From Candidatus Hermodarchaeota archaeon (GTDB lineage Archaea; Asgardarchaeota; Lokiarchaeia; Sigyniarchaeales; SOKP01), in assembly GCA_048885535.1 (NCBI GenBank), contig JBHLLO010000011.1, forward strand, positions 9,483-69,524: a DNA stretch of 60,042 bases. Direction: 5' to 3'. This document shows, one piece after another, positions 8,171-28,958 of the stretch; within the stretch, counting starts at the first letter, position 1, and each line of letters opens with the position of its first letter. The position numbers and the translations under genes were made by a program. The notes beneath the pieces were generated by a model. That model did not search any database. It saw only the letters and a list, made by a program, of their open reading frames with translations, and was not told the DNA's origin.

Positions 8171-9025
8171 TTATTTTTTTATTTTTGAAGCTAAAATAGG
8201 TGAAATCCTTCGACTAATAAATTCTCTAATATACCTCAAACGCGTTTTATTAATTGAAGAAAGAGTTAATCTATCATTCATTACTTTAATTAATTCTTTT
8301 TCTGATATTTTGCTGCAATCTTCGAGGATTGAGACCGCAAATTCAACATCTCTTATAAATCGCAAAACTATGTCTGCCAATGATTTGAACTGAATTCCAT
8401 TTTCGTTCTTTTCTCTCAAAGCATTTTTAAGTATTGCTTGTTCATGTTTAATATCTGTTTCAAAAGGATCTTGAATTACATGCTTATAATTATTAATTAG
8501 AAAATCAAATTTCTGTTGATTAGCAACCATATTATAATAAAAACCTGGATTTGGGTAAATTTCTGGATCATACTCAATTTTTTCTAATGCATGAGAATTT
8601 CTATATTCTTCAGGGATCAATTCATCTATTGCATTATTTAAGGGTTCTAAATTTACACTTTCATTTATTTTACTAATGATAAAGGAAGAATAACCAAATA
8701 AACTGGCGTGAATTAACCCTGCAATACAATTAAAACCAAATTCACGTACGAAACTTATTAAGGAAGGACCTTTTACTTCTTCATCCTTAATTTGGTCTTC
8801 TTGTTTTAAATTTGAAATAAACATATCTATAGTTTCATAACCTAAGATTTTACCATTTGGATCCGCTAAAATCATAAATCGATCTTCACAAACAGCTCCT
8901 TGAGGCACTTGAATCTTAACAAAACCATACTTTTTTTGAGAAAAAACTTTGAGCGGAATTCTTAATCTTTTTGTAGTCCCACAGGCAGGACATGCTATTT
9001 CCAACTCTTTTACAGCTTGTTCCAT
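8171..9025 (-). CDS. Hypothetical protein with N-terminal Zn-ribbon-like CPACG motif
   Basis: 284-aa ORF; 'IACPACG' plus a downstream Cys ('AVCED'); GGTGGGG SD-like sequence upstream. Confidence 0.65.
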   Translation of the reverse strand: MEQAVKELEIACPACGTTKRLRIPLKVFSQKKYGFVKIQVPQGAVCEDRFMILADPNGKILGYETIDMFISNLKQEDQIKDEEVKGPSLISFVREFGFNCIAGLIHASLFGYSSFIISKINESVNLEPLNNAIDELIPEEYRNSHALEKIEYDPEIYPNPGFYYNMVANQQKFDFLINNYKHVIQDPFETDIKHEQAILKNALREKNENGIQFKSLADIVLRFIRDVEFAVSILEDCSKISEKELIKVMNDRLTLSSINKTRLRYIREFISRRISPILASKIKK

Positions 9026-20196: not shown

Positions 20197-20565
20197 ATGT
20201 CATTTAGAGAAACCCCGTTAGCAGAATTGGCAAAAAAAGTCTTTTCTGAGAAATTTCATTATATTAATAATCCCCAGAAATTTAAAGGTAAATCTGGAAA
20301 ATTATGGGATTTCAATGCAATTGTGGATGATGAAAAGTATGGAAAATACGGTATTTTTATTCGGGATTGGAAAAGGGAAATCTCTATAACTCAATTACGA
20401 CAACTTCATAAGGCATGTCTGGATGTTCCAGAAATTGAAGGTGGTATTATGGTGTGTAATATAGCAACTGATTTTGCTCGAGATTATTCTAATCAATTTG
20501 GGATACAGCTTCTAAGCAGAGGACACTTAGTCTCAAAATTAAGAAATCGAGAATTTCAATTTTAA
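20197..20565 (+). CDS. Stand-alone Mrr-like restriction-endonuclease-fold protein (probably inactive)
   Basis: 'KGKSGKLWDFN', 'RDWKREISITQLRQL', 'GIMV' and 'FGIQLL' follow the Mrr_cat pattern. Confidence 0.6.
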   Translation: MSFRETPLAELAKKVFSEKFHYINNPQKFKGKSGKLWDFNAIVDDEKYGKYGIFIRDWKREISITQLRQLHKACLDVPEIEGGIMVCNIATDFARDYSNQFGIQLLSRGHLVSKLRNREFQF

Positions 20566-20599
20566 GCAATTTTTCTTCTTCCAAGGAAATAATGTTATT

Positions 20600-21622
20600 T
20601 TAATCTGAAAAGATTAATCTTTGTTTAAACAGTGTTTGATTAGAACTAGCATCAATAATATACAAGAAATATTCATGACTAGTAGAATAAATCGGTGAAA
20701 CAATAATTAATTCCTCTTCAGGAACCCACTTTTCAATCTTCTCTCGTAACACTTCACTCTCAAAAAATTCTTGAATAGAAATAACTTTTGCACAGATATT
20801 GTTAAATAAATTTTTTGATTGGTTCTTGATTAAAATTTCTACTTCTTGAGTATCTTTGTCCATATCTGTTCTTAAAATTCTAAAATTTTTTTCAAATCCA
20901 TATAACTCATTTGTTAAAACTTTTGATTCAAATAATTTAACATTCGAAAAACCTAAATCATCTTCTTCACTAAAAATGTAATTTATTGGAACTCCTTTTA
21001 ATGATAAATATGATATGGCCTTCTGAAGTTTGAAAGTTGTAGAATCCGTTCTTTTAATAACAGATTGGAAATATTGTGAACAGGTGTTTTTGATTAGAAC
21101 TTTTATTCGTTTTTTAATAGCTTCTCCTATATTGATTAATGACTTTATTGTTGGAGTTTTTATTGCTTGTGTTTTAGCTACTTCGGCATCTATTAAATGA
21201 GATATCTTTGATGAAAAATGTTTTATTATTCGTTCAGCCATTTTTTTTAGAAGAGTTCCTCCAAAGATATCCATATCGATTGGTAGAGCTAAGATCAACA
21301 CAAGAGTTTCGAAAAGATCTTCTTCAGAACCAGATCGCCGTTTTTCTCTTTTAGATGATATTAAAAACTTCTTTGCGAAATATATTTTTTCTTTATATTC
21401 CAAATCCATTCGATCTGGAGATGTTTGATCACTTATATCAAGGAACCAAATTGAGTGAATTCTAATCAAGCGCATAATATCAAGATTATCTTTTAGAGAT
21501 TCATCAGGAGTGATAAGAAGAGGCACTGGACCAAACTCTTCGTCGAAGTAGAGTAAAAAGATTTCACATAATTGCTCAGGTTCTATAACTTCTTTCTGCT
21601 TTTTTTTTGAAAAGTTATCCAT
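20600..21622 (-). CDS. Hypothetical protein with N-terminal uDENN/longin-like domain
   Basis: 'IFLLYFDEEFGPVPL' start motif; beta-rich C-terminal domain; 30 bp downstream of the hydrogenase large subunit on the same strand. Confidence 0.55.
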   Translation of the reverse strand: MDNFSKKKQKEVIEPEQLCEIFLLYFDEEFGPVPLLITPDESLKDNLDIMRLIRIHSIWFLDISDQTSPDRMDLEYKEKIYFAKKFLISSKREKRRSGSEEDLFETLVLILALPIDMDIFGGTLLKKMAERIIKHFSSKISHLIDAEVAKTQAIKTPTIKSLINIGEAIKKRIKVLIKNTCSQYFQSVIKRTDSTTFKLQKAISYLSLKGVPINYIFSEEDDLGFSNVKLFESKVLTNELYGFEKNFRILRTDMDKDTQEVEILIKNQSKNLFNNICAKVISIQEFFESEVLREKIEKWVPEEELIIVSPIYSTSHEYFLYIIDASSNQTLFKQRLIFSD

Positions 21623-21652
21623 TTGAGTTACACCATTTTTAGTAGATAATTT

Positions 21653-22963
21653 TTAATGTGTAGCACAAGAGATGCATGGATCAAAAGCTCTTATCAGAAT
21701 TTGAACCTTTCTATTAACTGATTCTAGATCTTCTTTTTTATATAACTCTTGAGCATAATTTTTAATTTTTTCATTTAATAGAGGGAAATTTATTTCAGTT
21801 GCGATAAAAAGTTTAACATAATCAATATTATTAGACTTATTCATATGATAATGGTGTATAAGGGTACCACGTGGTGCCTCAACCATCCCAACACCGTTTT
21901 GATGTACAATAGAGTTAAGAGAGGGAAGTGGTTCTTTATTTTCCAAACTATGTTGATTTAATATTTCTAAGCTCGCCTCTATTTCCTTAAAAATTTCAAT
22001 TAATTGTAATACATTCATAAATAATATGCTTTCTCTCCAGTTTTTTTCAAAATTATCTATAATAGAATTTTTTCTATTTCCAAAGTCATTTTCGACTAAA
22101 TGGAATCTAGCAATTGGTCCAGTTAATATATTTTTAAAATCTTTTGATCTAAATTTAATTCCAAAAAGATTACAATCTTTATCAAAATAATTCAAATAAC
22201 CGTTTACTTCAAACTCTAATTTCTTCATATTAAATGGCATTATATTTAGAGTTCCGTTATATCGATCATATTTTCCCTTGTTGGACATTCCAAAATATGA
22301 TGGATTCTGTAAATTAAATTCATTTGGGGGAATTTTAGTAGCAAAGAGTTCTACAAATTTATCAATAATATATTGTATATTAAAAATAGATTTCTGTAAG
22401 TATTTCTGGGCAAGTAAAATATTCTTTTTCGAAGGGTTATAAATGATTCCACCTGGAATAGGTGTAATTAAATGAAGCATTCTTCCTCCAAAAATATTAT
22501 TTAATTCTGAACCTGCTTTAATTAAATCATAAACACTAGTGGTTAATTGAGAATCAAATCTAATTAGTTGGTAAGGATCTATCCCTTTTTTATAAATCTG
22601 AAAAATTTCTAAAAAATCAGGTAATGATTGAAAGAAAAAATGCATTATATGAGATTTAATTAATTCAGCTACCATCAATATTCTTCGAAGTAGGGTTGTT
22701 TGGAAACTAGGCTGGATTTCATAAATCTTTTCAATGGCTTTACAACTAGCAAATGTTTGAGAAGCATGACATAAACCACAAATTCTTGAAACGATTCTAG
22801 GAATATCATTTAACTTTTTGCCTACTAAAATGTTTTCAAATCCTCTAAATGCAGAAATTTCAAATTCTACATGATCTATTTTTTCATTTTGAATGAAATA
22901 ATTTACTTTTCCATGTCCTTCGACTCTCGAACATACATTTATTACCTTTTGCATTACTTTCAC
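21653..22963 (-). CDS. mvhA: [NiFe]-hydrogenase large subunit, group 3 (MvhA-like), with sensor-type features
   Basis: 'SRVEGHG', L1 'RICGLCHASQ', 'VEAPRGTLIHHY' and L2 'DPCISCATH*'. Confidence 0.88.
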   Translation of the reverse strand: MKVMQKVINVCSRVEGHGKVNYFIQNEKIDHVEFEISAFRGFENILVGKKLNDIPRIVSRICGLCHASQTFASCKAIEKIYEIQPSFQTTLLRRILMVAELIKSHIMHFFFQSLPDFLEIFQIYKKGIDPYQLIRFDSQLTTSVYDLIKAGSELNNIFGGRMLHLITPIPGGIIYNPSKKNILLAQKYLQKSIFNIQYIIDKFVELFATKIPPNEFNLQNPSYFGMSNKGKYDRYNGTLNIMPFNMKKLEFEVNGYLNYFDKDCNLFGIKFRSKDFKNILTGPIARFHLVENDFGNRKNSIIDNFEKNWRESILFMNVLQLIEIFKEIEASLEILNQHSLENKEPLPSLNSIVHQNGVGMVEAPRGTLIHHYHMNKSNNIDYVKLFIATEINFPLLNEKIKNYAQELYKKEDLESVNRKVQILIRAFDPCISCATH

Positions 22964-23712
22964 CTTTTTAATATTGGTTTTGAAAACCTATAAAAGATAC
23001 CAGAATATCTCTTAAGGTTATTAGAAAGATGAACTAAACTTAAGAAATTAACAAGGTTTGAAGTAAATTGCTTTGAGGGAGAACCTAAACAACCCTCACA
23101 TGGCATTCCTAATTCTATACATTTATTATCGCACCCTTCTCTAGTAATTGGCCCTAAACATAAAATTTCATTATTTAAAAAACATTCCCGCTTATTTGAA
23201 GTAATTTCAGAATTAGTAGGACTAAGTTTTGATATTTGAGAATTAAAATTAAAATGCTTCTCGTCTCTCAGTGGACAAGAACTACACATATTTTTTTCTG
23301 AGAGCGTTATATTCTTATTTTCAATAAGCCTCATTAAAGAATTTCCTAATAAGTTTGTTGGAGGAGGACATCCAGGGATAATATTATTAATCTCGATGTA
23401 TTTTGAAATTGGATTCGAATTTTTCCTTTTTGATAAACCCAGAATACCCCCAAATGCAGCACAAGTACCTAAAGCATATACTTTTCTTGAATGCTTTCGA
23501 ATTTCCTTCAATACTTCTATTTGATTTACTTCTGAAATGCATCCCTCTATTAATGCAATATCTGAATCTGAAATTTCATTTTCACTTGAGATAAACGGAA
23601 AAAATGTAATTTCAGTCCTTTCTAAAAATTGAGGAAACATATCTAAAGACATAATAGAAGAAATACAACCACTACATGAAGTTAATGATGCTACAATAAA
23701 TCTAAGTTTGAT
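22960..23712 (-). CDS. mvhG: [NiFe]-hydrogenase small subunit (MvhG-like); probable ATC start
   Basis: The frame extends upstream of the ORF-track Met (23652) to include 'SLTSCSGC'; then 'IEG', 'GTCAAFGG', 'PGCPP', 'CSSC', 'CLGPIT' and 'PCEGC'. Confidence 0.85.
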   Translation of the reverse strand: MKLRFIVASLTSCSGCISSIMSLDMFPQFLERTEITFFPFISSENEISDSDIALIEGCISEVNQIEVLKEIRKHSRKVYALGTCAAFGGILGLSKRKNSNPISKYIEINNIIPGCPPPTNLLGNSLMRLIENKNITLSEKNMCSSCPLRDEKHFNFNSQISKLSPTNSEITSNKRECFLNNEILCLGPITREGCDNKCIELGMPCEGCLGSPSKQFTSNLVNFLSLVHLSNNLKRYSGIFYRFSKPILKR

Positions 23713-26248
23713 TAGTGACCCCCTCCCTTAAAATATTATAAAATTTGTTAGCAATTTCTGCAAACTTAGGACCTTCTACCGCGTTTAAATTTTTAAATAT
23801 AATTCGGTTGCGATATTTTGGGCTTAAGATTTTTTTAAGAATTTGTATTTTTTTTTGTGCTTTTTCAATTCCGTCAATATATCTACAAGCATCTTTTCTA
23901 CATCCTATAACCATTACACCATCAAATCCTACCTCAAAAGATTTAAATATAAATTCAGTATCTAATCTTCCTGTGCATGGGATGCGAATAACAAAAATAT
24001 TAGGCTGATATAGCTCCTTCTTTAGCCCAGCGTCATCAACAGCTGCATATCCACAAGAATAACAACAGAAAGCAACAATTTTAGGATTTTTATTAAATTT
24101 TGAATAAATTTCAATTGTTTTCAATATTTTTTCTGATGTATCTATATTCATTTCAATTGCGTTTGTAGAACATACACTTGCACATGTTCCACATCCTTTA
24201 CATTTAAACTTATCTACGCTAATCTTATTAGATTCTATAGTTATCGCATTATAAGGACACACTCTTTCACATAAGCCACATAATCCGCATTTTTCTTCAT
24301 TAATTCCAATACTTGTGAATTCAGTTAATAAATAATCATTTGATAATAGAGAGATGATTTTTAATGCTACTACGTTTGTCGTAGACATAGTAGATTGATA
24401 ATTTAGCGGTCCAAATATTGTTCCAATGCCATAAATCCCAGATGCTAAAGTCTCTTCACTCATAAATCCATTATCATTTAAAGTAAAATCCATGAATTTT
24501 CTTAATATTTTAAGATCTTTATTTGGAATATACTTAAGATTTAAAACTATCAAATCACTTGGAAATTCAATGTTATCTGCGATCACATAATTAACGTTAT
24601 CATTAGATTGAATTGTAATCTTATTAGCATATAGAAATCTTGGATTGGTAGATCTTAGAAGAATTTCATCCTTATTTTTTAATTTACTCAAATCATAAAA
24701 AACATTGACTTCACACTCAGGGCTTCTTATTTTAATATCCTCAATATATTTTTGTGCTAAGATTTCAGAGTATTCAGTAAGATATTTGGAAGGACCAACT
24801 TCTTGAATTATTGAAATAGAGTTTATAGGTATTTTATCGGATAATCTTAATAATTTTCCTTCAGTGATACCATCAGAAGATAATATTCTTTCGAATTCAG
24901 CCGAAGTAATAATACTTTTTTGAGGATTATAAAGATATTTTTCTAAATTCGTATATAAATCCGCACCAATCGCAATGACTTTAACTCCAACCTTAATACG
25001 AATCTTTTCAAGTTTTTGATGTAAGTCAATTGCTTTATTAATACAAACACGCTCACATATCATACAGTTTAAGCAATTATTAATATCCTCTTCATCAATT
25101 ATAGGAGCATATGGATAAGAATTTTGGAAGGGAATGTATATTATTTTTCGGTTTGATAAACCAAATTCATATTGATTTTTCTTTTCCTTACCGCATACAC
25201 TAATGCATTGTTTACAACCTGTGCACTTTTTTTCATCTACATAACGAGGTTTCTTGATTAAATCTAATGTAAAATTACCTACTTCTCCAGAAACCATTTC
25301 TATTTCAGTATTGGTCAAAATATCAATATTTTTCTCTTTAGCAATCTCACCAATTAATTCAGAAATAAAACATATAGAGCAGTCCCCCATATTAGAAATT
25401 CGATGCCATCTAGCTACTTTTCCTCCTAATGTTGGTGATTTCTCTATAAGATATACTTTTATTCCTGCACGTGAGAGATTTAGAGCTAACGTCATCCCTG
25501 CAATGCCACCTCCTAATATCGCACAGCTTTTTTCAACATCAACAGTTTTTATTTTGACTTCTTTTTGAAGTTTTACACGTTCAACTGCAGCTTCAATTAA
25601 TAAGCTCGCCTTCTTTAATGCTAATAATGGATCAAATTGCTGAGTGTTTGAATGATGAACCCAACAACATTGCTCTCTAATATTGGCTATTTCTATATTA
25701 GCACTATCAATCACAGGTTTAAAGATTCGTTCAAAAATGTGTTGATGTGTTTTGGGGGAACAAGCCGCTATAACCACTTTGTTTAAGAAATTTTCTTTTG
25801 TCCAATTTGTAATTTTATTCAAGTTCTTTTCTTGACATAAATTATCAAAAACTTTTACAGAAACTACATTATCTAATTTTTCAATCTGATTTTCTAATAC
25901 ATTAATATTTATTATGTTGGATATTTCAGTATTACAATTACATAGAATCACTCCAATTCGACTAATTTCACTCCCCTTTTTGTCTAAGTATTCTATTTCT
26001 TCCCCTGCTAAAATACGTCTGCTTACATTCATAATTCTTAAAATTCTTTTGCCATCTTCCGTCAAAAAGTAAGATTTTTTATCTTTATTTATTAAGGATC
26101 CTAATTTCTTTAAATGAAAATTTAATTGCCCGGTTTGGGCGATCCCCATTTTTTCCATTAAATCTGTGTATGAGATGAATCCTTCTTTTTCTAGGAGTAA
26201 TAAGATTTTTCTTCGAAAAGGATGAGATAATATGTTATAGATATCTAT
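23702..26248 (-). CDS. hdrA: Fusion of ArsR-like winged-helix domain, heterodisulfide reductase subunit A-like flavoprotein and MvhD; probable ATA start
   Basis: wHTH 'ILSHPFRRKILLLL...GQLNFHLKKL...YFLTEDG'; HdrA 'CNC', 'AACSP', 'NIREQC', 'GGGIAG', 'DCSIC', four CxxCxxCxxxC motifs, 'EFERIL'; MvhD 'AFCCYSCGY', 'PCTGR', 'GCRKDACRY'. Confidence 0.88.
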   Translation of the reverse strand: MDIYNILSHPFRRKILLLLEKEGFISYTDLMEKMGIAQTGQLNFHLKKLGSLINKDKKSYFLTEDGKRILRIMNVSRRILAGEEIEYLDKKGSEISRIGVILCNCNTEISNIININVLENQIEKLDNVVSVKVFDNLCQEKNLNKITNWTKENFLNKVVIAACSPKTHQHIFERIFKPVIDSANIEIANIREQCCWVHHSNTQQFDPLLALKKASLLIEAAVERVKLQKEVKIKTVDVEKSCAILGGGIAGMTLALNLSRAGIKVYLIEKSPTLGGKVARWHRISNMGDCSICFISELIGEIAKEKNIDILTNTEIEMVSGEVGNFTLDLIKKPRYVDEKKCTGCKQCISVCGKEKKNQYEFGLSNRKIIYIPFQNSYPYAPIIDEEDINNCLNCMICERVCINKAIDLHQKLEKIRIKVGVKVIAIGADLYTNLEKYLYNPQKSIITSAEFERILSSDGITEGKLLRLSDKIPINSISIIQEVGPSKYLTEYSEILAQKYIEDIKIRSPECEVNVFYDLSKLKNKDEILLRSTNPRFLYANKITIQSNDNVNYVIADNIEFPSDLIVLNLKYIPNKDLKILRKFMDFTLNDNGFMSEETLASGIYGIGTIFGPLNYQSTMSTTNVVALKIISLLSNDYLLTEFTSIGINEEKCGLCGLCERVCPYNAITIESNKISVDKFKCKGCGTCASVCSTNAIEMNIDTSEKILKTIEIYSKFNKNPKIVAFCCYSCGYAAVDDAGLKKELYQPNIFVIRIPCTGRLDTEFIFKSFEVGFDGVMVIGCRKDACRYIDGIEKAQKKIQILKKILSPKYRNRIIFKNLNAVEGPKFAEIANKFYNILREGVTNQT

Positions 26249-26454
26249 TTTTAAATCCCCTCTATTGATTATTGTTATTGTTATTTTTGAAATTTGACAA
26301 ATTTATTTCTCTTCATGATAATGAAGTTATTAGATTATTTAAACTTTGCCGGATCCTGATCATTAGGATTTTCTTTTTTATAAATAAGAGTGTCGCTATC
26401 AGTCGGAGAAATGTCGATTTTGCATATAACAAAAAAAGTTTTATTAGATAAATT

Positions 26455-26500
26455 TCTGACTAAAAAAATTATCAAACTATAACAAAATTTTCTTGTCAAA
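26455..26500. promoter_or_regulatory. Putative tandem operator (two ~22-bp TTTGAY-N10-RTCAAA-type sites, 24-bp period) in the divergent promoter
   Basis: TCTGACTAAAAAAATTATCAAA-CT-ATAACAAAATTTTCTTGTCAAA; 35/46 ungapped identities with 31295-31340. Confidence 0.55.
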
Positions 26501-26583
26501 CTCTTTTTATTCTAACAATTTGATTATTATCTTAGATTAATAATAATCTTTTAATAAAGGTTTATGAAGAGGTGTTTTGTAAA

Positions 26584-27201
26584 ATGGAAGTTTTGGAATT
26601 AAAGCCTATAAAAAATAAAAGAATTGTTGCCTATATTACCTCAAAAGAAAATGCTAAGTACTTCCAAAACAAAGACACTGAAAAATTAAGGAAATTTTTG
26701 AAAAAGAACACCGTCGATTTTGTGACGGTAGATTTCCAAGTTAACATGAAGGAATTCAATAAAACATCATTTGCACTAACATTAAATGAACTTAAGATCC
26801 CTTATTGTCAAGTTGATATTCCAGACTACGCAATGGGATATCTTTATCAAGAAATTATCGAAAAACAGCAGTTACAAACAGAATTGTTTGAAGAATATGA
26901 AAATATGAGCGAGAAAGAATCATATAAAGGACTTAGTTTAAAAAATTGGATTGATATGCTAGGTGAGGAAATACAAGAAAAAGAAATATTTCTAAGTTTA
27001 AAACTAAGACCTCAGTGGATTGTTAAAAAAATGTTAGATCTAATATCAGACTACGAAAAAGATGTCATAGTATTTGTTCATTTTGTTCAAGAGGACATAT
27101 GTGAAGATATTTGTCCAGAGATTACAAACAATTTGAGGGAATTAGGCGTAAAAGTTGTCTCTTATAATAAAAAACATACTATCCAAAATATAATATTTTA
27201 A
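26584..27201 (+). CDS. Hypothetical protein, paralogue of 27221-27952 (divergent TraB/ChaN-like fold with helical hairpin)
   Basis: GAGGTG SD before ATG 26584; shares 'EVLELKP', 'IP(Y/F)xxxDIxxxAxxYL' and 'KxRxxW' with the next gene. Confidence 0.65.
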   Translation: MEVLELKPIKNKRIVAYITSKENAKYFQNKDTEKLRKFLKKNTVDFVTVDFQVNMKEFNKTSFALTLNELKIPYCQVDIPDYAMGYLYQEIIEKQQLQTELFEEYENMSEKESYKGLSLKNWIDMLGEEIQEKEIFLSLKLRPQWIVKKMLDLISDYEKDVIVFVHFVQEDICEDICPEITNNLRELGVKVVSYNKKHTIQNIIF

Positions 27202-27220: not shown

Positions 27221-27952
27221 TTGCCAGAAGTGTTAGAATTAAAGCCTTTAAAAGAAAAATATTTAAAGTTAATAATGGTTGAAAGTGAATTTCCAATTGA
27301 TTGGTGGTTCGAAGTCCCCGATGAAATTAAAGAGGATCTTGTATGGAACCTCCATTTAATTTCAAAAGAATACCTTCAATTGATTGATTCATTAATTGAA
27401 AAATATAAACCTGATTTTGCGGTAGAAGAAAAGCCAAATTTTTGGAATAATGCAAATCACACAAAGGATCCATTAAAAAACTTATTTGAAAAAAAAAAAA
27501 TTCCATTCAAACGCGCAGATATTTCCGAAAATGCCGAATTGTATCTTTCATCAGCCCTAGATGGACATAGATCAGCAATTAAAAATCTTGAGTCGAGAAT
27601 TAGAGAATTAATCCAAAAACAAGGGAAAATTCCTGAAAATGATGACTTATTTCAAAAGTTAATATTATGGAAAGAGTATTTACAGAAAGATTATGATACT
27701 CAAGAAGATGAAGTAAGGTATAAAGTAAGAGAAGCGTGGATGATGATGAATATTCTTAACCTTGCTAAGGATGTACAAGGGAAGAAATTGAAAGGGATGT
27801 TCATTTGCGATCTTCGCCACTTTAATGGGATTGAAAAACTGTCAGAAGATTTGGGTATAGAAATAGAACAAGTGAAGATAAAAAGAACTATTAAAACTGA
27901 GGACCTCGAAAAGGATCTTGAAAAAGATGTAGAAATTGACATTTCTAAATAA
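27221..27952 (+). CDS. Hypothetical protein, divergent TraB/ChaN-like fold
   Basis: AGGAGGAG SD with TTG start; 'KYKPDFAVEE', 'REAWM' and 'FICDLRHFNGI' resemble TraB-type 'PDxVxVE', 'RdxxM' and 'VGxxHxxGI'. Confidence 0.6.
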   Translation: MPEVLELKPLKEKYLKLIMVESEFPIDWWFEVPDEIKEDLVWNLHLISKEYLQLIDSLIEKYKPDFAVEEKPNFWNNANHTKDPLKNLFEKKKIPFKRADISENAELYLSSALDGHRSAIKNLESRIRELIQKQGKIPENDDLFQKLILWKEYLQKDYDTQEDEVRYKVREAWMMMNILNLAKDVQGKKLKGMFICDLRHFNGIEKLSEDLGIEIEQVKIKRTIKTEDLEKDLEKDVEIDISK

Positions 27953-27971
27953 ATAAAAAGAGTTGATAAAA

Positions 27972-28958
27972 ATGGTTGAAAAAAGTGTAGAAAGTATTTT
28001 AGGAAAAAAATCTATTATCGAATTAACTCCAATTATTATAAAGAAACAAGATACTTCCGATAAAATTTGTTATTTTTTTGATACAGATGATAATGCATCT
28101 CCATTTGATATTAATATGGCTTATGATGCTGGTTTCGATATAGTTATACCTCTAAATAAAATGAAAGCAGAGTATGTTCCCAAATTAGTTCAAGATGCTA
28201 TTTTTTCTAGGAAACCCGGTGCTCCTACAGCCTTTTTTATTGGTGGTTCAGATGTCAAAGAGGGTGAAAAAATTGCTAAAGCTGTGAAAAGTTCATTAGT
28301 ACCACCTTTTGAATGTCCCATCATTATTGACCCTAGAGGATCTCATACTACAGCATCAGCGGTTATAGCCATGACGATGGATATTGCAAATAAAAAGCAT
28401 GGTATTAAAGATTTAAAAAGTAAGAAAGTTGTAATCTTTGGTGCGGGTCCTGTTGGCAGAATTGCTGCAATTATAGCCGCAAAAATAGGCTGCAAGGTCT
28501 ACATCGTTGAGACTTGGGAGAAATCTAATGAGAATTTTGTGAATGCTTTAGTAAAGGAACTTAATGCTGAAGCTGGAACCGAAGGAGAAAAGATTATTGG
28601 ATTATTTGCACCCGAACTTGAACAGAGGTTTGAAATAGCTAAAGATGCGCTTATTATATGGTCCCTTGCTGCAGCAGGAGTTGAAATATTAAGTGTTGAA
28701 TGGATGCAAAAATTGAAGGGTAAAAAAATTGTTGTTGATATTAATCTTGTGCCACCATATGGTATTGAGGGCATTAAACCAAAACATAAAAATGACGAAA
28801 TCTATCCTGGAATATTCTGTATTGGGGCACTCGCATTAGGAGCTTTAAAGGCTAATACTGAAAGTCAGATCTTAAAAGAAGCCTCAAAAACAAAAGGATT
28901 ACAGATATTTGATTATAATTATGCATTTGAAGTTGCGTCTGGATTGCTTAAAAAGTAA
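27972..28958 (+). CDS. mtdB: NAD(P)-dependent methylene-tetrahydromethanopterin dehydrogenase-like protein (MtdA/MtdB family)
   Basis: 'SPFDINMAYDAGFD', 'LVQDAIFSR', 'FIGGSD', 'PPF', 'DPRGSHTTASA', Rossmann 'GAGPVG' and 'DINLVPPYGIEG'. Confidence 0.8.
   Translation: MVEKSVESILGKKSIIELTPIIIKKQDTSDKICYFFDTDDNASPFDINMAYDAGFDIVIPLNKMKAEYVPKLVQDAIFSRKPGAPTAFFIGGSDVKEGEKIAKAVKSSLVPPFECPIIIDPRGSHTTASAVIAMTMDIANKKHGIKDLKSKKVVIFGAGPVGRIAAIIAAKIGCKVYIVETWEKSNENFVNALVKELNAEAGTEGEKIIGLFAPELEQRFEIAKDALIIWSLAAAGVEILSVEWMQKLKGKKIVVDINLVPPYGIEGIKPKHKNDEIYPGIFCIGALALGALKANTESQILKEASKTKGLQIFDYNYAFEVASGLLKK

Follow-up and report, generated by a model that had tools for sequence, protein, structure and literature searches.

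A Lokiarchaeial group 3 [NiFe] hydrogenase with sensor-like active-site changes and a predicted DNA-binding domain on its HdrA partner

Among [NiFe] hydrogenases, the described systems closest to the one considered here are the group 3c complexes MvhAGD-HdrABC and VhuAGDU-HdrABC (PDB 5ODC and 9SW2) and the H2 sensors of group 2b, HoxBC of Cupriavidus necator and HupUV. The available part of PMC5665086 states that the His of the L1 motif of the large subunit is conserved in all [NiFe] hydrogenases except the sensors, and that the sensor's L1 Gln "seems not to be involved in H2 sensing". The Asgard enzyme has been filed as a standard MvhADG-HdrABC bifurcating or confurcating hydrogenase (PMC7015854 and PMC11291895, each available in part), and HdrA-MvhD fusions in Asgard archaea are listed in the accessible portion of PMC11237513, in which no winged helix-turn-helix (wHTH) is mentioned. 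A search of full-text literature, with subscription journals and supplements outside its reach, found nothing on an Asgard L1 motif, its Gln, the C-terminal tail, a helix-turn-helix in Lokiarchaeal MvhADG, or a wHTH on HdrA. Here we analyse a hydrogenase large subunit and its operon in a stretch of 60,042 nucleotides from Candidatus Hermodarchaeota archaeon (assembly GCA_048885535.1, contig JBHLLO010000011.1, positions 9,483 to 69,524), to which we refer as a whole as the window. The source is a metagenome-assembled genome (MAG) of an Asgard archaeon (Promethearchaeota) with ~30% G+C and a size of 3.09 Mb.

By its motifs, trees and gene context, this large subunit belongs to a distinct, Lokiarchaeia-centred lineage of Mvh-like group 3 enzymes, whose sensor-like active-site surround is convergent and which shares one operon with a wHTH-HdrA-MvhD fusion. 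We favour, with moderate confidence and on the strength of sequence comparison, the reading that it is a working, retuned hydrogenase module that also regulates its own operon.

Active site and lineage of the large subunit

Translation of the minus strand over positions 21500-22900, together with a listing of open reading frames (ORFs), gives a single large-subunit ORF (Table 1). An ATG lies three codons inside its GTG start, at 22954, and would yield 433 residues, the length of the database copy P0001. Pfam PF00374 matches the protein at 9.5e-30 (104.4 bits; cut-off 25.8), and the two CxxC pairs of L1 and L2, the R-x-E-G of L0 and the Arg before D-P-C are all in place. The NCBIfam models ShyA (8.1e-48) and VhuA (2.1e-47) match almost equally, and these and FrhA score far under their equivalog cut-offs (for VhuA, 161.6 bits against 800). 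The original prediction had described the protein, apart from two marks, as group 3-like with MvhG and MvhD partners. This is borne out: RVEGHG in L0 and EAPRGTLIHHY are both found, the best relative in the PDB is MvhA (5odc_F, E 4e-47; 9sw2_F follows at 8.2e-41), and Pfam and NCBIfam confirm an MvhG-like small subunit and an HdrA-MvhD fusion.

The two marks were an L1 motif ending in Gln and a stop immediately after DPCISCATH, and translation finds both exactly where they had been placed. Gln69 aligns with the L1 His of MvhA and with Gln67 of HoxC, and it occupies a site where almost all [NiFe] hydrogenases carry His. The C-terminus reads ...RAFDPCISCATH, with the stop codon directly behind it. 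HoxC has both marks, as had been claimed; the sensor string quoted for it, RICGICSVSQ, was slightly off, since C. necator HoxC reads RVCGICSVSQ and ends DPCMVCTVH. In 27 diverse members of the clade, R13, E15 and G16 of L0, C62, G63 and C65 of L1, the stretch E362-A-P-R-G366, and R425, D428, P429, C430, C433 and H436 are invariant. Judged by this alignment, every residue required to hold and work the NiFe site is retained.

A second change lies at position 112. In a gap-free alignment block, the window protein has Gln where HoxC has Phe110 and where HoxG, HoxH and the VhuA of the same genome have Leu; the 120 closest homologues have Gln in 110 cases and His in 8, with 2 unmatched. The alignment thus marks Leu to Gln at the HoxC-Phe110 position as a second lineage-specific change. 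This position, together with the residue between the L1 cysteines (Leu64 in the window protein), forms what we take to be the gas-channel gate, Val74/Leu122 in Desulfovibrio fructosovorans and Ile62/Phe110 in the sensor; a literature search on a gas-channel role of Ile62/Phe110 returned no paper, and one on Gln67 none that deals with hydrogenases. Residue 66 (codon 22766-22768), directly after the second L1 Cys, is His or Tyr in most clade members, the two commonest strings of the form RICGLC[H/Y]ASQ accounting for 51 and 38 of 120; in the rest of group 3, Pro or Ser prevails at this position. As a speculation, this His or Tyr might be a substitute hydrogen-bond donor one helix turn from the lost His.

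Both original marks extend well beyond the window gene. Among the 120 closest homologues, which are the best matches in a set of 5.8 billion proteins, 119 carry the L1 Gln and 119 end at the L2 His, the remaining one failing to match the L2 pattern. The sole His-bearing homologue (P0010, which has no tail) falls within the Gln clade. An exhaustive HMMER search yielded 150 representatives at 50% identity, of which 9, all near the query, fit the strict L1 pattern with Gln (4 with tails of 5-11 residues and 5 fragments). His occurs in 103 (23 tail-less, 39 with 1-14 residues, 35 with at least 15 and 6 without a recognisable L2) and Tyr in 5, while 33 lie outside the strict pattern. One representative, P0121, is tail-less and has the Lys variant KICGLCHASQ. 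Of 80 related genomic loci, 30 have Gln (27 tail-less, 2 with 5 residues, 1 cut off) and 28 have His and no tail; the latter are mostly from Anaerolineae, and 27 of them have no HdrA nearby. Gln with a tail of 5-11 residues is seen in P0123, P0127, P0131, P0132, L031 and L036, and His without a tail in P0122 and P0010. On these counts the two traits are separable, and both are inherited by the lineage and are not peculiarities of the window gene. An absent tail is, in the same samples, common in ordinary group 3 enzymes and so not diagnostic, while the Gln is specific to the Lokiarchaeia-centred lineage.

Phylogenetic placement rests on a FastTree of 160 rows and an IQ-TREE (LG+C20 with posterior mean site frequencies, PMSF; quick search) of 60 rows, with one reference each for groups 2b (HoxC), 1d (HoxG) and 3d (HoxH), all from the C. 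necator megaplasmid, and with 3b and 3c labels taken from NCBIfam best hits. In both trees HoxC lies outside all group 3 rows with a branch support of 100, which sets the window protein apart from group 2b. It falls inside a 29-row clade (Shimodaira-Hasegawa-like approximate likelihood ratio test, SH-aLRT, 99) with enzymes of Bathyarchaeota, CR_4 and Jord/Freyarchaeia type, and this clade is sister to the ShyA-like (3b-like) rows, with supports of 80 and 90, and not to the VhuA- or HoxH-like rows. Within it, His-bearing short-tailed enzymes (Jord/Freya) branch first, followed by P0122 (His, tail-less), by Gln enzymes with short tails and finally by the tail-less Gln core; by this order the two marks were acquired separately. 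Because the Gln clade is nested within group 3 and HoxC lies outside, the Gln is convergent with that of the group 2b sensors; by the trees it is derived within group 3, independently of them.

The assignment to group 3c depends on the yardstick. The MvhG, MvhD and HdrA partners are those of a group 3c enzyme; neither the tree nor the VhuA equivalog score places the protein with MvhA and VhuA, and the L1 His and the cleaved C-terminal extension of that group are both missing (Gln69; nothing past His436). VhuA-like representatives have tails of 9-34 residues, with the sole exception of P0149, which groups with them and is tail-less. Outside its own family, the phylum sample holds only more distant relatives, at no more than 37% identity.

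The original prediction had read the two marks as a convergently evolved, low-activity sensor. Convergence of the Gln stands; as evidence for a sensor the marks do not suffice, because a whole enzyme lineage carries them. The condition named with that prediction as refuting it, namely that both marks are common in catalytic group 3 enzymes without a regulator, holds for one of the two: many His-bearing enzymes of this kind lack the tail. A dedicated H2 sensor would be a slow module that reports H2 to the HdrA flavin, the redox state of which switches the wHTH, while a Vhu-type [NiFeSe] enzyme carries bulk H2 metabolism. The L1 Gln and missing tail shared with HoxC speak for this, as does the second Gln at the position of HoxC Phe110, but the window protein keeps the L0 His and not HoxC's Asp, the tail-less state is widespread among ordinary enzymes, and in the one sensor studied the Gln is reported as probably uninvolved in sensing (PMC5665086, available in part). 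With the genomic evidence given below, we consider a dedicated sensor rather unlikely.

Two further departures from the usual ends of these motifs were seen elsewhere in the group. Five representatives of a ShyA-like (3b-like) subclade (P0161, P0176, P0194, P0222 and P0263) have Tyr for the L1 His, as in RICGICPVAY, with tails of 5-12 residues, and so form a second lineage outside the sensors in which that His is not universal. In L041 (Bathyarchaeota), L080 (Promethearchaeota CR_4), P0151, P0190, P0230 and P0266 the C-termini read ...DPCISCLDA, ...CLAQ, ...CLGA or ...CLAL: the L2 cysteines are kept, the terminal His is gone and nothing follows, an alteration different from that of the window protein. 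L041 and L080, the two with genomic context, adjoin HdrA-MvhD fusions.

The HdrA fusion, its winged helix and a candidate operator

In 24 of the 30 Gln loci the gene order is wHTH-HdrA-MvhD fusion, small subunit, large subunit. Contig ends truncate five of the remaining loci, and the sixth, L036, has only an MvhD remnant, behind a transporter gene. Co-occurrence with a wHTH-HdrA neighbour, named in the original prediction as a check on both marks, is thus found for the Gln, while nearly all of the His-bearing tail-less loci have no HdrA nearby. The fused partner also precedes His-bearing large subunits in L033 (Jordarchaeia) and L041 and is therefore older than the Gln. In the window the small-subunit gene overlaps the start of the large-subunit gene by 4 nt, and NCBIfam HdrA2 matches the fusion at 1.5e-167 (559 bits, residues 67-812; cut-off 1100). 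No hdrBC is present in the operon, and a scan that took in nine neighbouring ORFs as well found no histidine kinase.

ATA and ATC appear to be the start codons of the operon's first two genes. A start at the first ATG of the HdrA gene would halve the wHTH, the SCSGC ligands of the proximal cluster lie only within the longer small-subunit frame (the other cluster cysteines are also kept), and both frames are open further upstream. About 20 homologues have ATG, GTG or TTG at the codons matching the window's ATA (HdrA) and ATC (small subunit). The closest relative, L007, with a 79% identical large subunit, shares both codons, and ATT stands at the small-subunit site in L008 and L019; these starts are therefore not sequencing slips. 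Gene callers that need ATG, GTG or TTG would truncate both the HdrA fusion and the small subunit.

The wHTH shows up only if the HdrA frame is extended beyond its first ATG in the 5' direction, in a stretch of 114 residues (25960-26302). This stretch matches Pfam DUF7347 at 1.9e-12 (47.7 bits; cut-off 27.6), and more weakly the ArsR-like families HTH_20, HTH_24 and HTH_5; a profile search matches PDB 1y0u, a putative ArsR repressor, at 4.3e-4. An AlphaFold model has a predicted local distance difference test (pLDDT) score above 90 over approximately residues 11-70 and the topology helix-helix-strand-helix-helix-wing-helix. The nearest folds are the regulators ArsR, BigR, CadC, YodB and HxlR, all weak matches (template modelling score, TM, 0.5-0.65; Foldseek E at least 2e-3). 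An alignment of 19 sequences has 22 invariant columns, and the presumed recognition helix TGQLNFHLKK is nearly invariant. The domain therefore has the ArsR/SmtB winged-helix fold and recognition-helix signature, with weak fold scores.

Upstream of the ATA lies a perfect palindrome, AAATTTGNCAAATTT, which occurs only once in the 3.09-Mb genome. Its core, TTGNCAA, is found in 11 of 27 homologous upstream regions; 1000 shuffles, which ignore shared ancestry, gave 2.2 on average and never more than 8. A bipartite element overlapping an inverted repeat is located just downstream of a TATA-like TTTAAATA (~26336-26343), such that repeat and palindrome both stand between TTTAAATA and the ATA. TTATCATG and TTGTCAAA each occur in 9 of the 27 upstream regions, where 0.2-0.3 would be expected, and the upstream region of L033 has two inverted copies, 6 nt apart. 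We regard this operator evidence as a lead and not as proof. The only other genomic copy of the pattern TT[AG]TCATG-N8-16-TT[AG]TCAA (C2:35981-36004) lies within a coding region and was set aside as chance. A bacterial promoter and terminator scan of 20400-26600 gave fewer sigma-70-like sites than shuffles, its bacterial models being uninformative for an archaeon, and no RNA sequencing runs are listed for 20600-26320.

Table 1. Features of the hydrogenase operon and its upstream region, in window coordinates
Feature	Position	Strand	Description
[NiFe]-hydrogenase large subunit	21653..22963	-	436 residues, GTG start; PF00374; Lokiarchaeial Gln-type lineage of group 3
L1 motif RICGLCHASQ	22757..22786	-	Residues 60-69; Cys62 and Cys65 are metal ligands; Gln69 codon 22757-22759
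Gln112 codon	22628..22630	-	In helix SHIMHFFFQSLPD; gap-free alignment block with HoxC Phe110
L2 motif DPCISCATH and stop codon (21653-21655)	21653..21682	-	No residues past His436; no C-terminal extension
MvhG-like small subunit	22960..23712	-	Probable ATC start 23712-23710, first ATG 23652; Oxidored_q6 2.7e-16; VhuG 8e-33
wHTH-HdrA-MvhD fusion	23702..26248	-	~848 residues from ATA 26248-26246; first ATG 26158
MvhD ([2Fe-2S] adaptor) domain	23726..24079	-	C-terminus of HdrA fusion; Pfam FlpD 2.9e-33, residues 694-811 of the 818-residue frame
ArsR/SmtB-type wHTH	25994..26248	-	N-terminus of HdrA fusion, 85 residues, complete winged helix
Perfect 15-bp palindrome AAATTTGNCAAATTT (AAATTTG-N-CAAATTT, core TTTGNCAAA)	26290..26304	.	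Candidate operator, 42-56 nt upstream of ATA
Bipartite TTATCATG-N12-TTGTCAA (26294-26321) overlapping inverted repeat CTTCAT-N4-ATGAAG (26311-26326)	26294..26326	-	
340-residue protein	20600..21622	-	No Pfam or NCBIfam family; last gene of apparent operon

In the reading we favour, the module would still activate or evolve H2, and electrons would pass through the three iron-sulfur (Fe-S) clusters of the small subunit to the MvhD domain and on to the flavin adenine dinucleotide (FAD) of HdrA. Maturation would proceed without a C-terminal endopeptidase, given that there is no tail. The two Gln changes would retune both gas access and the hydrogen bond at the active site, probably with some loss of turnover, and the ArsR-type wHTH of HdrA would bind the palindrome in its own promoter, making the complex a self-regulating enzyme in the manner of PutA. 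Read this way, "sensor" and "enzyme" are not alternatives. A bolder version, which we put forward only tentatively as a lesser possibility, is that the complex is a self-contained H2-responsive transcription factor, in which the HdrA flavin takes its redox state from H2 oxidation at a NiFe site deliberately detuned by two changes, L1 His to Gln and Leu to Gln at the gate, and this state switches binding of the wHTH to TTTGNCAAA palindromes. If this were true, the DNA itself would be where Asgard archaea read H2 partial pressure, the key variable of a syntrophic life, and neither a kinase nor a second messenger would be needed.

Other hydrogenases, constraint and maturation genes

Besides the Gln-type protein, the window's genome encodes a single large subunit; it is VhuA-like, lies on contig C57 and has the canonical RICGICPIPHH at L1 and a separate selenocysteine peptide, VhuU. 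On this 19.9-kb contig the Vhu genes adjoin hdrC, hdrB, hypF, hypD, hypE and hypC; a HycI-like endopeptidase is encoded elsewhere in the genome, and neither group 4 nor [FeFe] hydrogenases were found there. The vhuU gene (G000 contig C57, ~8737-8767, locus L006) has an insertion of 31 nt directly ahead of the Cys-Sec(TGA)-LSCAAH codons, which shifts the frame, while four relatives read ...VRC[FY]DC-U-LSCAAH in one frame. The inserted stretch contains a hairpin, and the 81-nt region has a folding energy of -22.3 kcal/mol (z = -3.0). A genuine disruption, a fault of the assembly and an intervening sequence are all conceivable; should the insertion be genuine, this genome has no intact hydrogenase other than the Gln type.

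A sample of 121 genomes of the family, with the Gln-type gene called at E <1e-100, has 79 with the Gln type and 97 with the Vhu type, and 16 with the Gln type only. Where the Gln type stands alone, its operon is intact. No other PF00374, PF00346 or PF02906 match is present in G045, G060 or G091, and G172, G231, G158 and G152 have a sole PF00374 match, no PF00346 and a HypD, with [FeFe] hydrogenases not checked in those four. Full-length large-subunit matches contain a single in-frame TAA in G152, G154, G202, G133 and G229, which may be pseudogenes, errors or stop-codon recoding; recoding is indicated for some Asgard lineages by the title of PMC9723677.

Several observations weigh against a working, self-regulating module. 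In the same genomes, Gln-type large subunits are 50-56% identical to the copy in the window's genome and Vhu-type large subunits 77-93% (54 against 90% in G050, 55 against 84% in G136, 51 against 82% in G038), and HdrA is better conserved than the large subunit of the Gln type in 25 of 25 complete loci (79 against 54% in L010). Such a rate contrast, as measured by these identities, points clearly to constraint that is weaker or of another kind. In the sub-lineage of the window, the apparent starts at ATA and ATC point to low flux or relaxed constraint, the L0 His (Asp in HoxC), though retained in the window, varies in ~20 of 120 homologues, and 63 of the 79 carrier genomes have another large-subunit match, usually a well-conserved Vhu type. 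The core TTGNCAA is absent from 16 of the 27 homologous promoters, and the wHTH of an MvhD-like adaptor, BamF, is a protein interface in another HdrA-type complex (bioRxiv 10.64898/2026.04.10.717634, available in part). Finally, HypC, HypD, the zinc finger of HypF and an above-cut-off HypE were not found in G045, G060 and G209, nor was any further hydrogenase family, in spite of an intact operon in each.

Much of this would suit a dedicated sensor: the fast evolution of the large subunit relative to both VhuA and HdrA, the variable L0 His, the weak starts common to L007 and the second large subunit in most carriers, to which may be added the conserved recognition helix and the palindrome in the promoter. 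However, the 16 carriers in which no other large subunit was found keep the operon intact and fit poorly with a protein that controls other hydrogenases. The HdrA partner is full-size, with all Fe-S and FAD domains and 65-90% identity, which exceeds the needs of a sensor, and its wHTH-HdrA-MvhD architecture predates the Gln.

The BamF interface and the promoters lacking the core are also what one might cite for an ordinary catalytic Mvh-like hydrogenase:HdrA complex, in which the Gln changes are neutral or mildly adaptive and the wHTH is structural or serves docking, with no DNA role. The catalytic residues are all invariant, the enzyme is the sole hydrogenase found in some genomes, and group 3c and Hdr genes, treated as working, are among the most transcribed in Freyarchaeia and Atabeyarchaeia (PMC11291895, available in part). 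These lineages, however, carry the His form in our data, so that the transcripts come from relatives outside the Gln clade. The ArsR-type recognition-helix signature is almost unchanged from Lokiarchaeia to Bathyarchaeota, the palindrome has no second copy in the genome and its core is enriched over shuffles, both changes beside the active site are fixed in the lineage (119 and 110 of 120), and the large subunit evolves much faster than VhuA; an ordinary enzyme thus seems unlikely to us.

The genomes with no Hyp proteins raise a third alternative, a hydrogenase-like protein free of the canonical NiFe(CN)2CO cofactor, whose four Cys would hold another metal site and which would act as a redox or regulatory subunit for HdrA. 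G045 is 99% complete (L093), G060 92% (L094) and G209, a single 2.27-Mb contig (L092), 81%; a control genome, G207, has HypC, HypD, HypE and HypF. In G209, moreover, HypA is doubtful and the one HypB match holds a TAG, and the fast evolution of the large subunit could be read in the same direction. HypA and HypB are nonetheless kept in G045, G060, G192 and G194, and HypD in 103 of the 121 family genomes and in 10 of the 16 Gln-only ones, 6 being without it. In the window's genome one short contig holds the hyp genes together with the Vhu genes, and missing such a contig would cost a MAG hypC, hypD, hypE and hypF at once. The noise of MAGs is of similar magnitude: HypD was found in 5 of the 8 genomes that have no large subunit of either type. 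We hold assembly loss to be at least as likely as biology for the Hyp-less carriers and reject them as proof that the protein is no hydrogenase; with ligands and second-sphere residues invariant, a protein without the canonical cofactor is very improbable. HycI-family endopeptidases follow no clear pattern, being present in G045 and G091, where the only large subunit found is of the Gln type, and absent from G060.

Beyond the three core genes, the 340-residue protein is encoded after a 30-nt gap behind the large subunit; a homologue occupies the same place in 13 of the 80 related loci, its atlas neighbours are hypothetical proteins of Promethearchaeota only, and its role may be that of a fourth subunit or of an accessory protein. 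Seven loci (L010, L012, L020, L023, L040, L092 and L093) have a second, divergently encoded HdrA paralogue upstream of the operon, 35-40% identical and split into adjacent frames by single stops, as expected of a selenocysteine-containing HdrA. The window has no such neighbour, and its genome has at least 7 HdrA-like loci on other contigs. On the opposite strand, 1.8 kb upstream of the operon, 27963-28958 (+) encodes 331 residues with an Mpt_N domain (methylene-tetrahydromethanopterin dehydrogenase N-terminal domain, 1.5e-25) and a Rossmann domain, and between the two are family-less ORFs at 26572-27201 and 27221-27952.

Comparison with known systems

Hydrogen transfer is central to Asgard life and to hydrogen-based models of eukaryote origin. 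What the comparisons here delineate is a separate lineage with an altered second sphere, tail-less maturation, a fast-evolving large subunit and a predicted DNA-binding domain on a flavoprotein, and should the enzyme prove slow, tuned or regulatory, published Asgard models would need their flux assignments revisited. Its L1 Gln contradicts the conservation of the L1 His outside the sensors, as given in the available part of PMC5665086, and makes the lineage a natural test case for that His.

With the Mvh and Vhu complexes the window system shares an MvhG-like small subunit, an MvhD domain and HdrA, and in the large subunit the L0 motif, the L1 cysteines, the EAPRG loop and L2, at only ~30% identity. 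It differs in having Gln for the L1 His of MvhA and Gln for Leu at the gate, in ending at L2 where MvhA has 25 residues past the His, and in the fusion of HdrA to MvhD and an N-terminal wHTH. Its operon also lacks hdrBC, while the hdrCB of the same genome stand beside the Vhu genes. With HoxBC and HupUV it has in common an L1 motif that closes with Gln, a C-terminus formed by the L2 His and a residue other than Leu at the position of HoxC 110. HoxC has RVEGD in L0, in contrast to RVEGH, and Ile62/Phe110 at the gate, in contrast to Leu64/Gln112, and the relationship to group 2b is at the superfamily level only. The output differs as well: a histidine kinase and a sigma-54 regulator are annotated beside hoxBC, whereas here a wHTH is fused to the HdrA flavoprotein.

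HdrA2 of Methanosarcina has the same HdrA-MvhD architecture and is the best NCBIfam match to the fusion, under its cut-off; the match begins at residue 67 and leaves the wHTH uncovered. HdrA2 pairs with HdrB2C2, whereas the window fusion is paired with a hydrogenase. The wHTH itself is weakly similar, in sequence and fold, to ArsR/SmtB repressors (1Y0U, BigR 3PQJ, CadC 1U2W), its best family being the uncharacterised DUF7347, but those repressors are free-standing and this domain is fused to an enzyme of 760 residues. A purely functional analogy is offered by PutA, a large flavoenzyme of proline utilisation with a small N-terminal DNA-binding domain, through which it represses its own operon in response to the flavin's redox state. 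PutA belongs to an unrelated family and binds DNA through a ribbon-helix-helix, whereas the window protein would do so through a wHTH.

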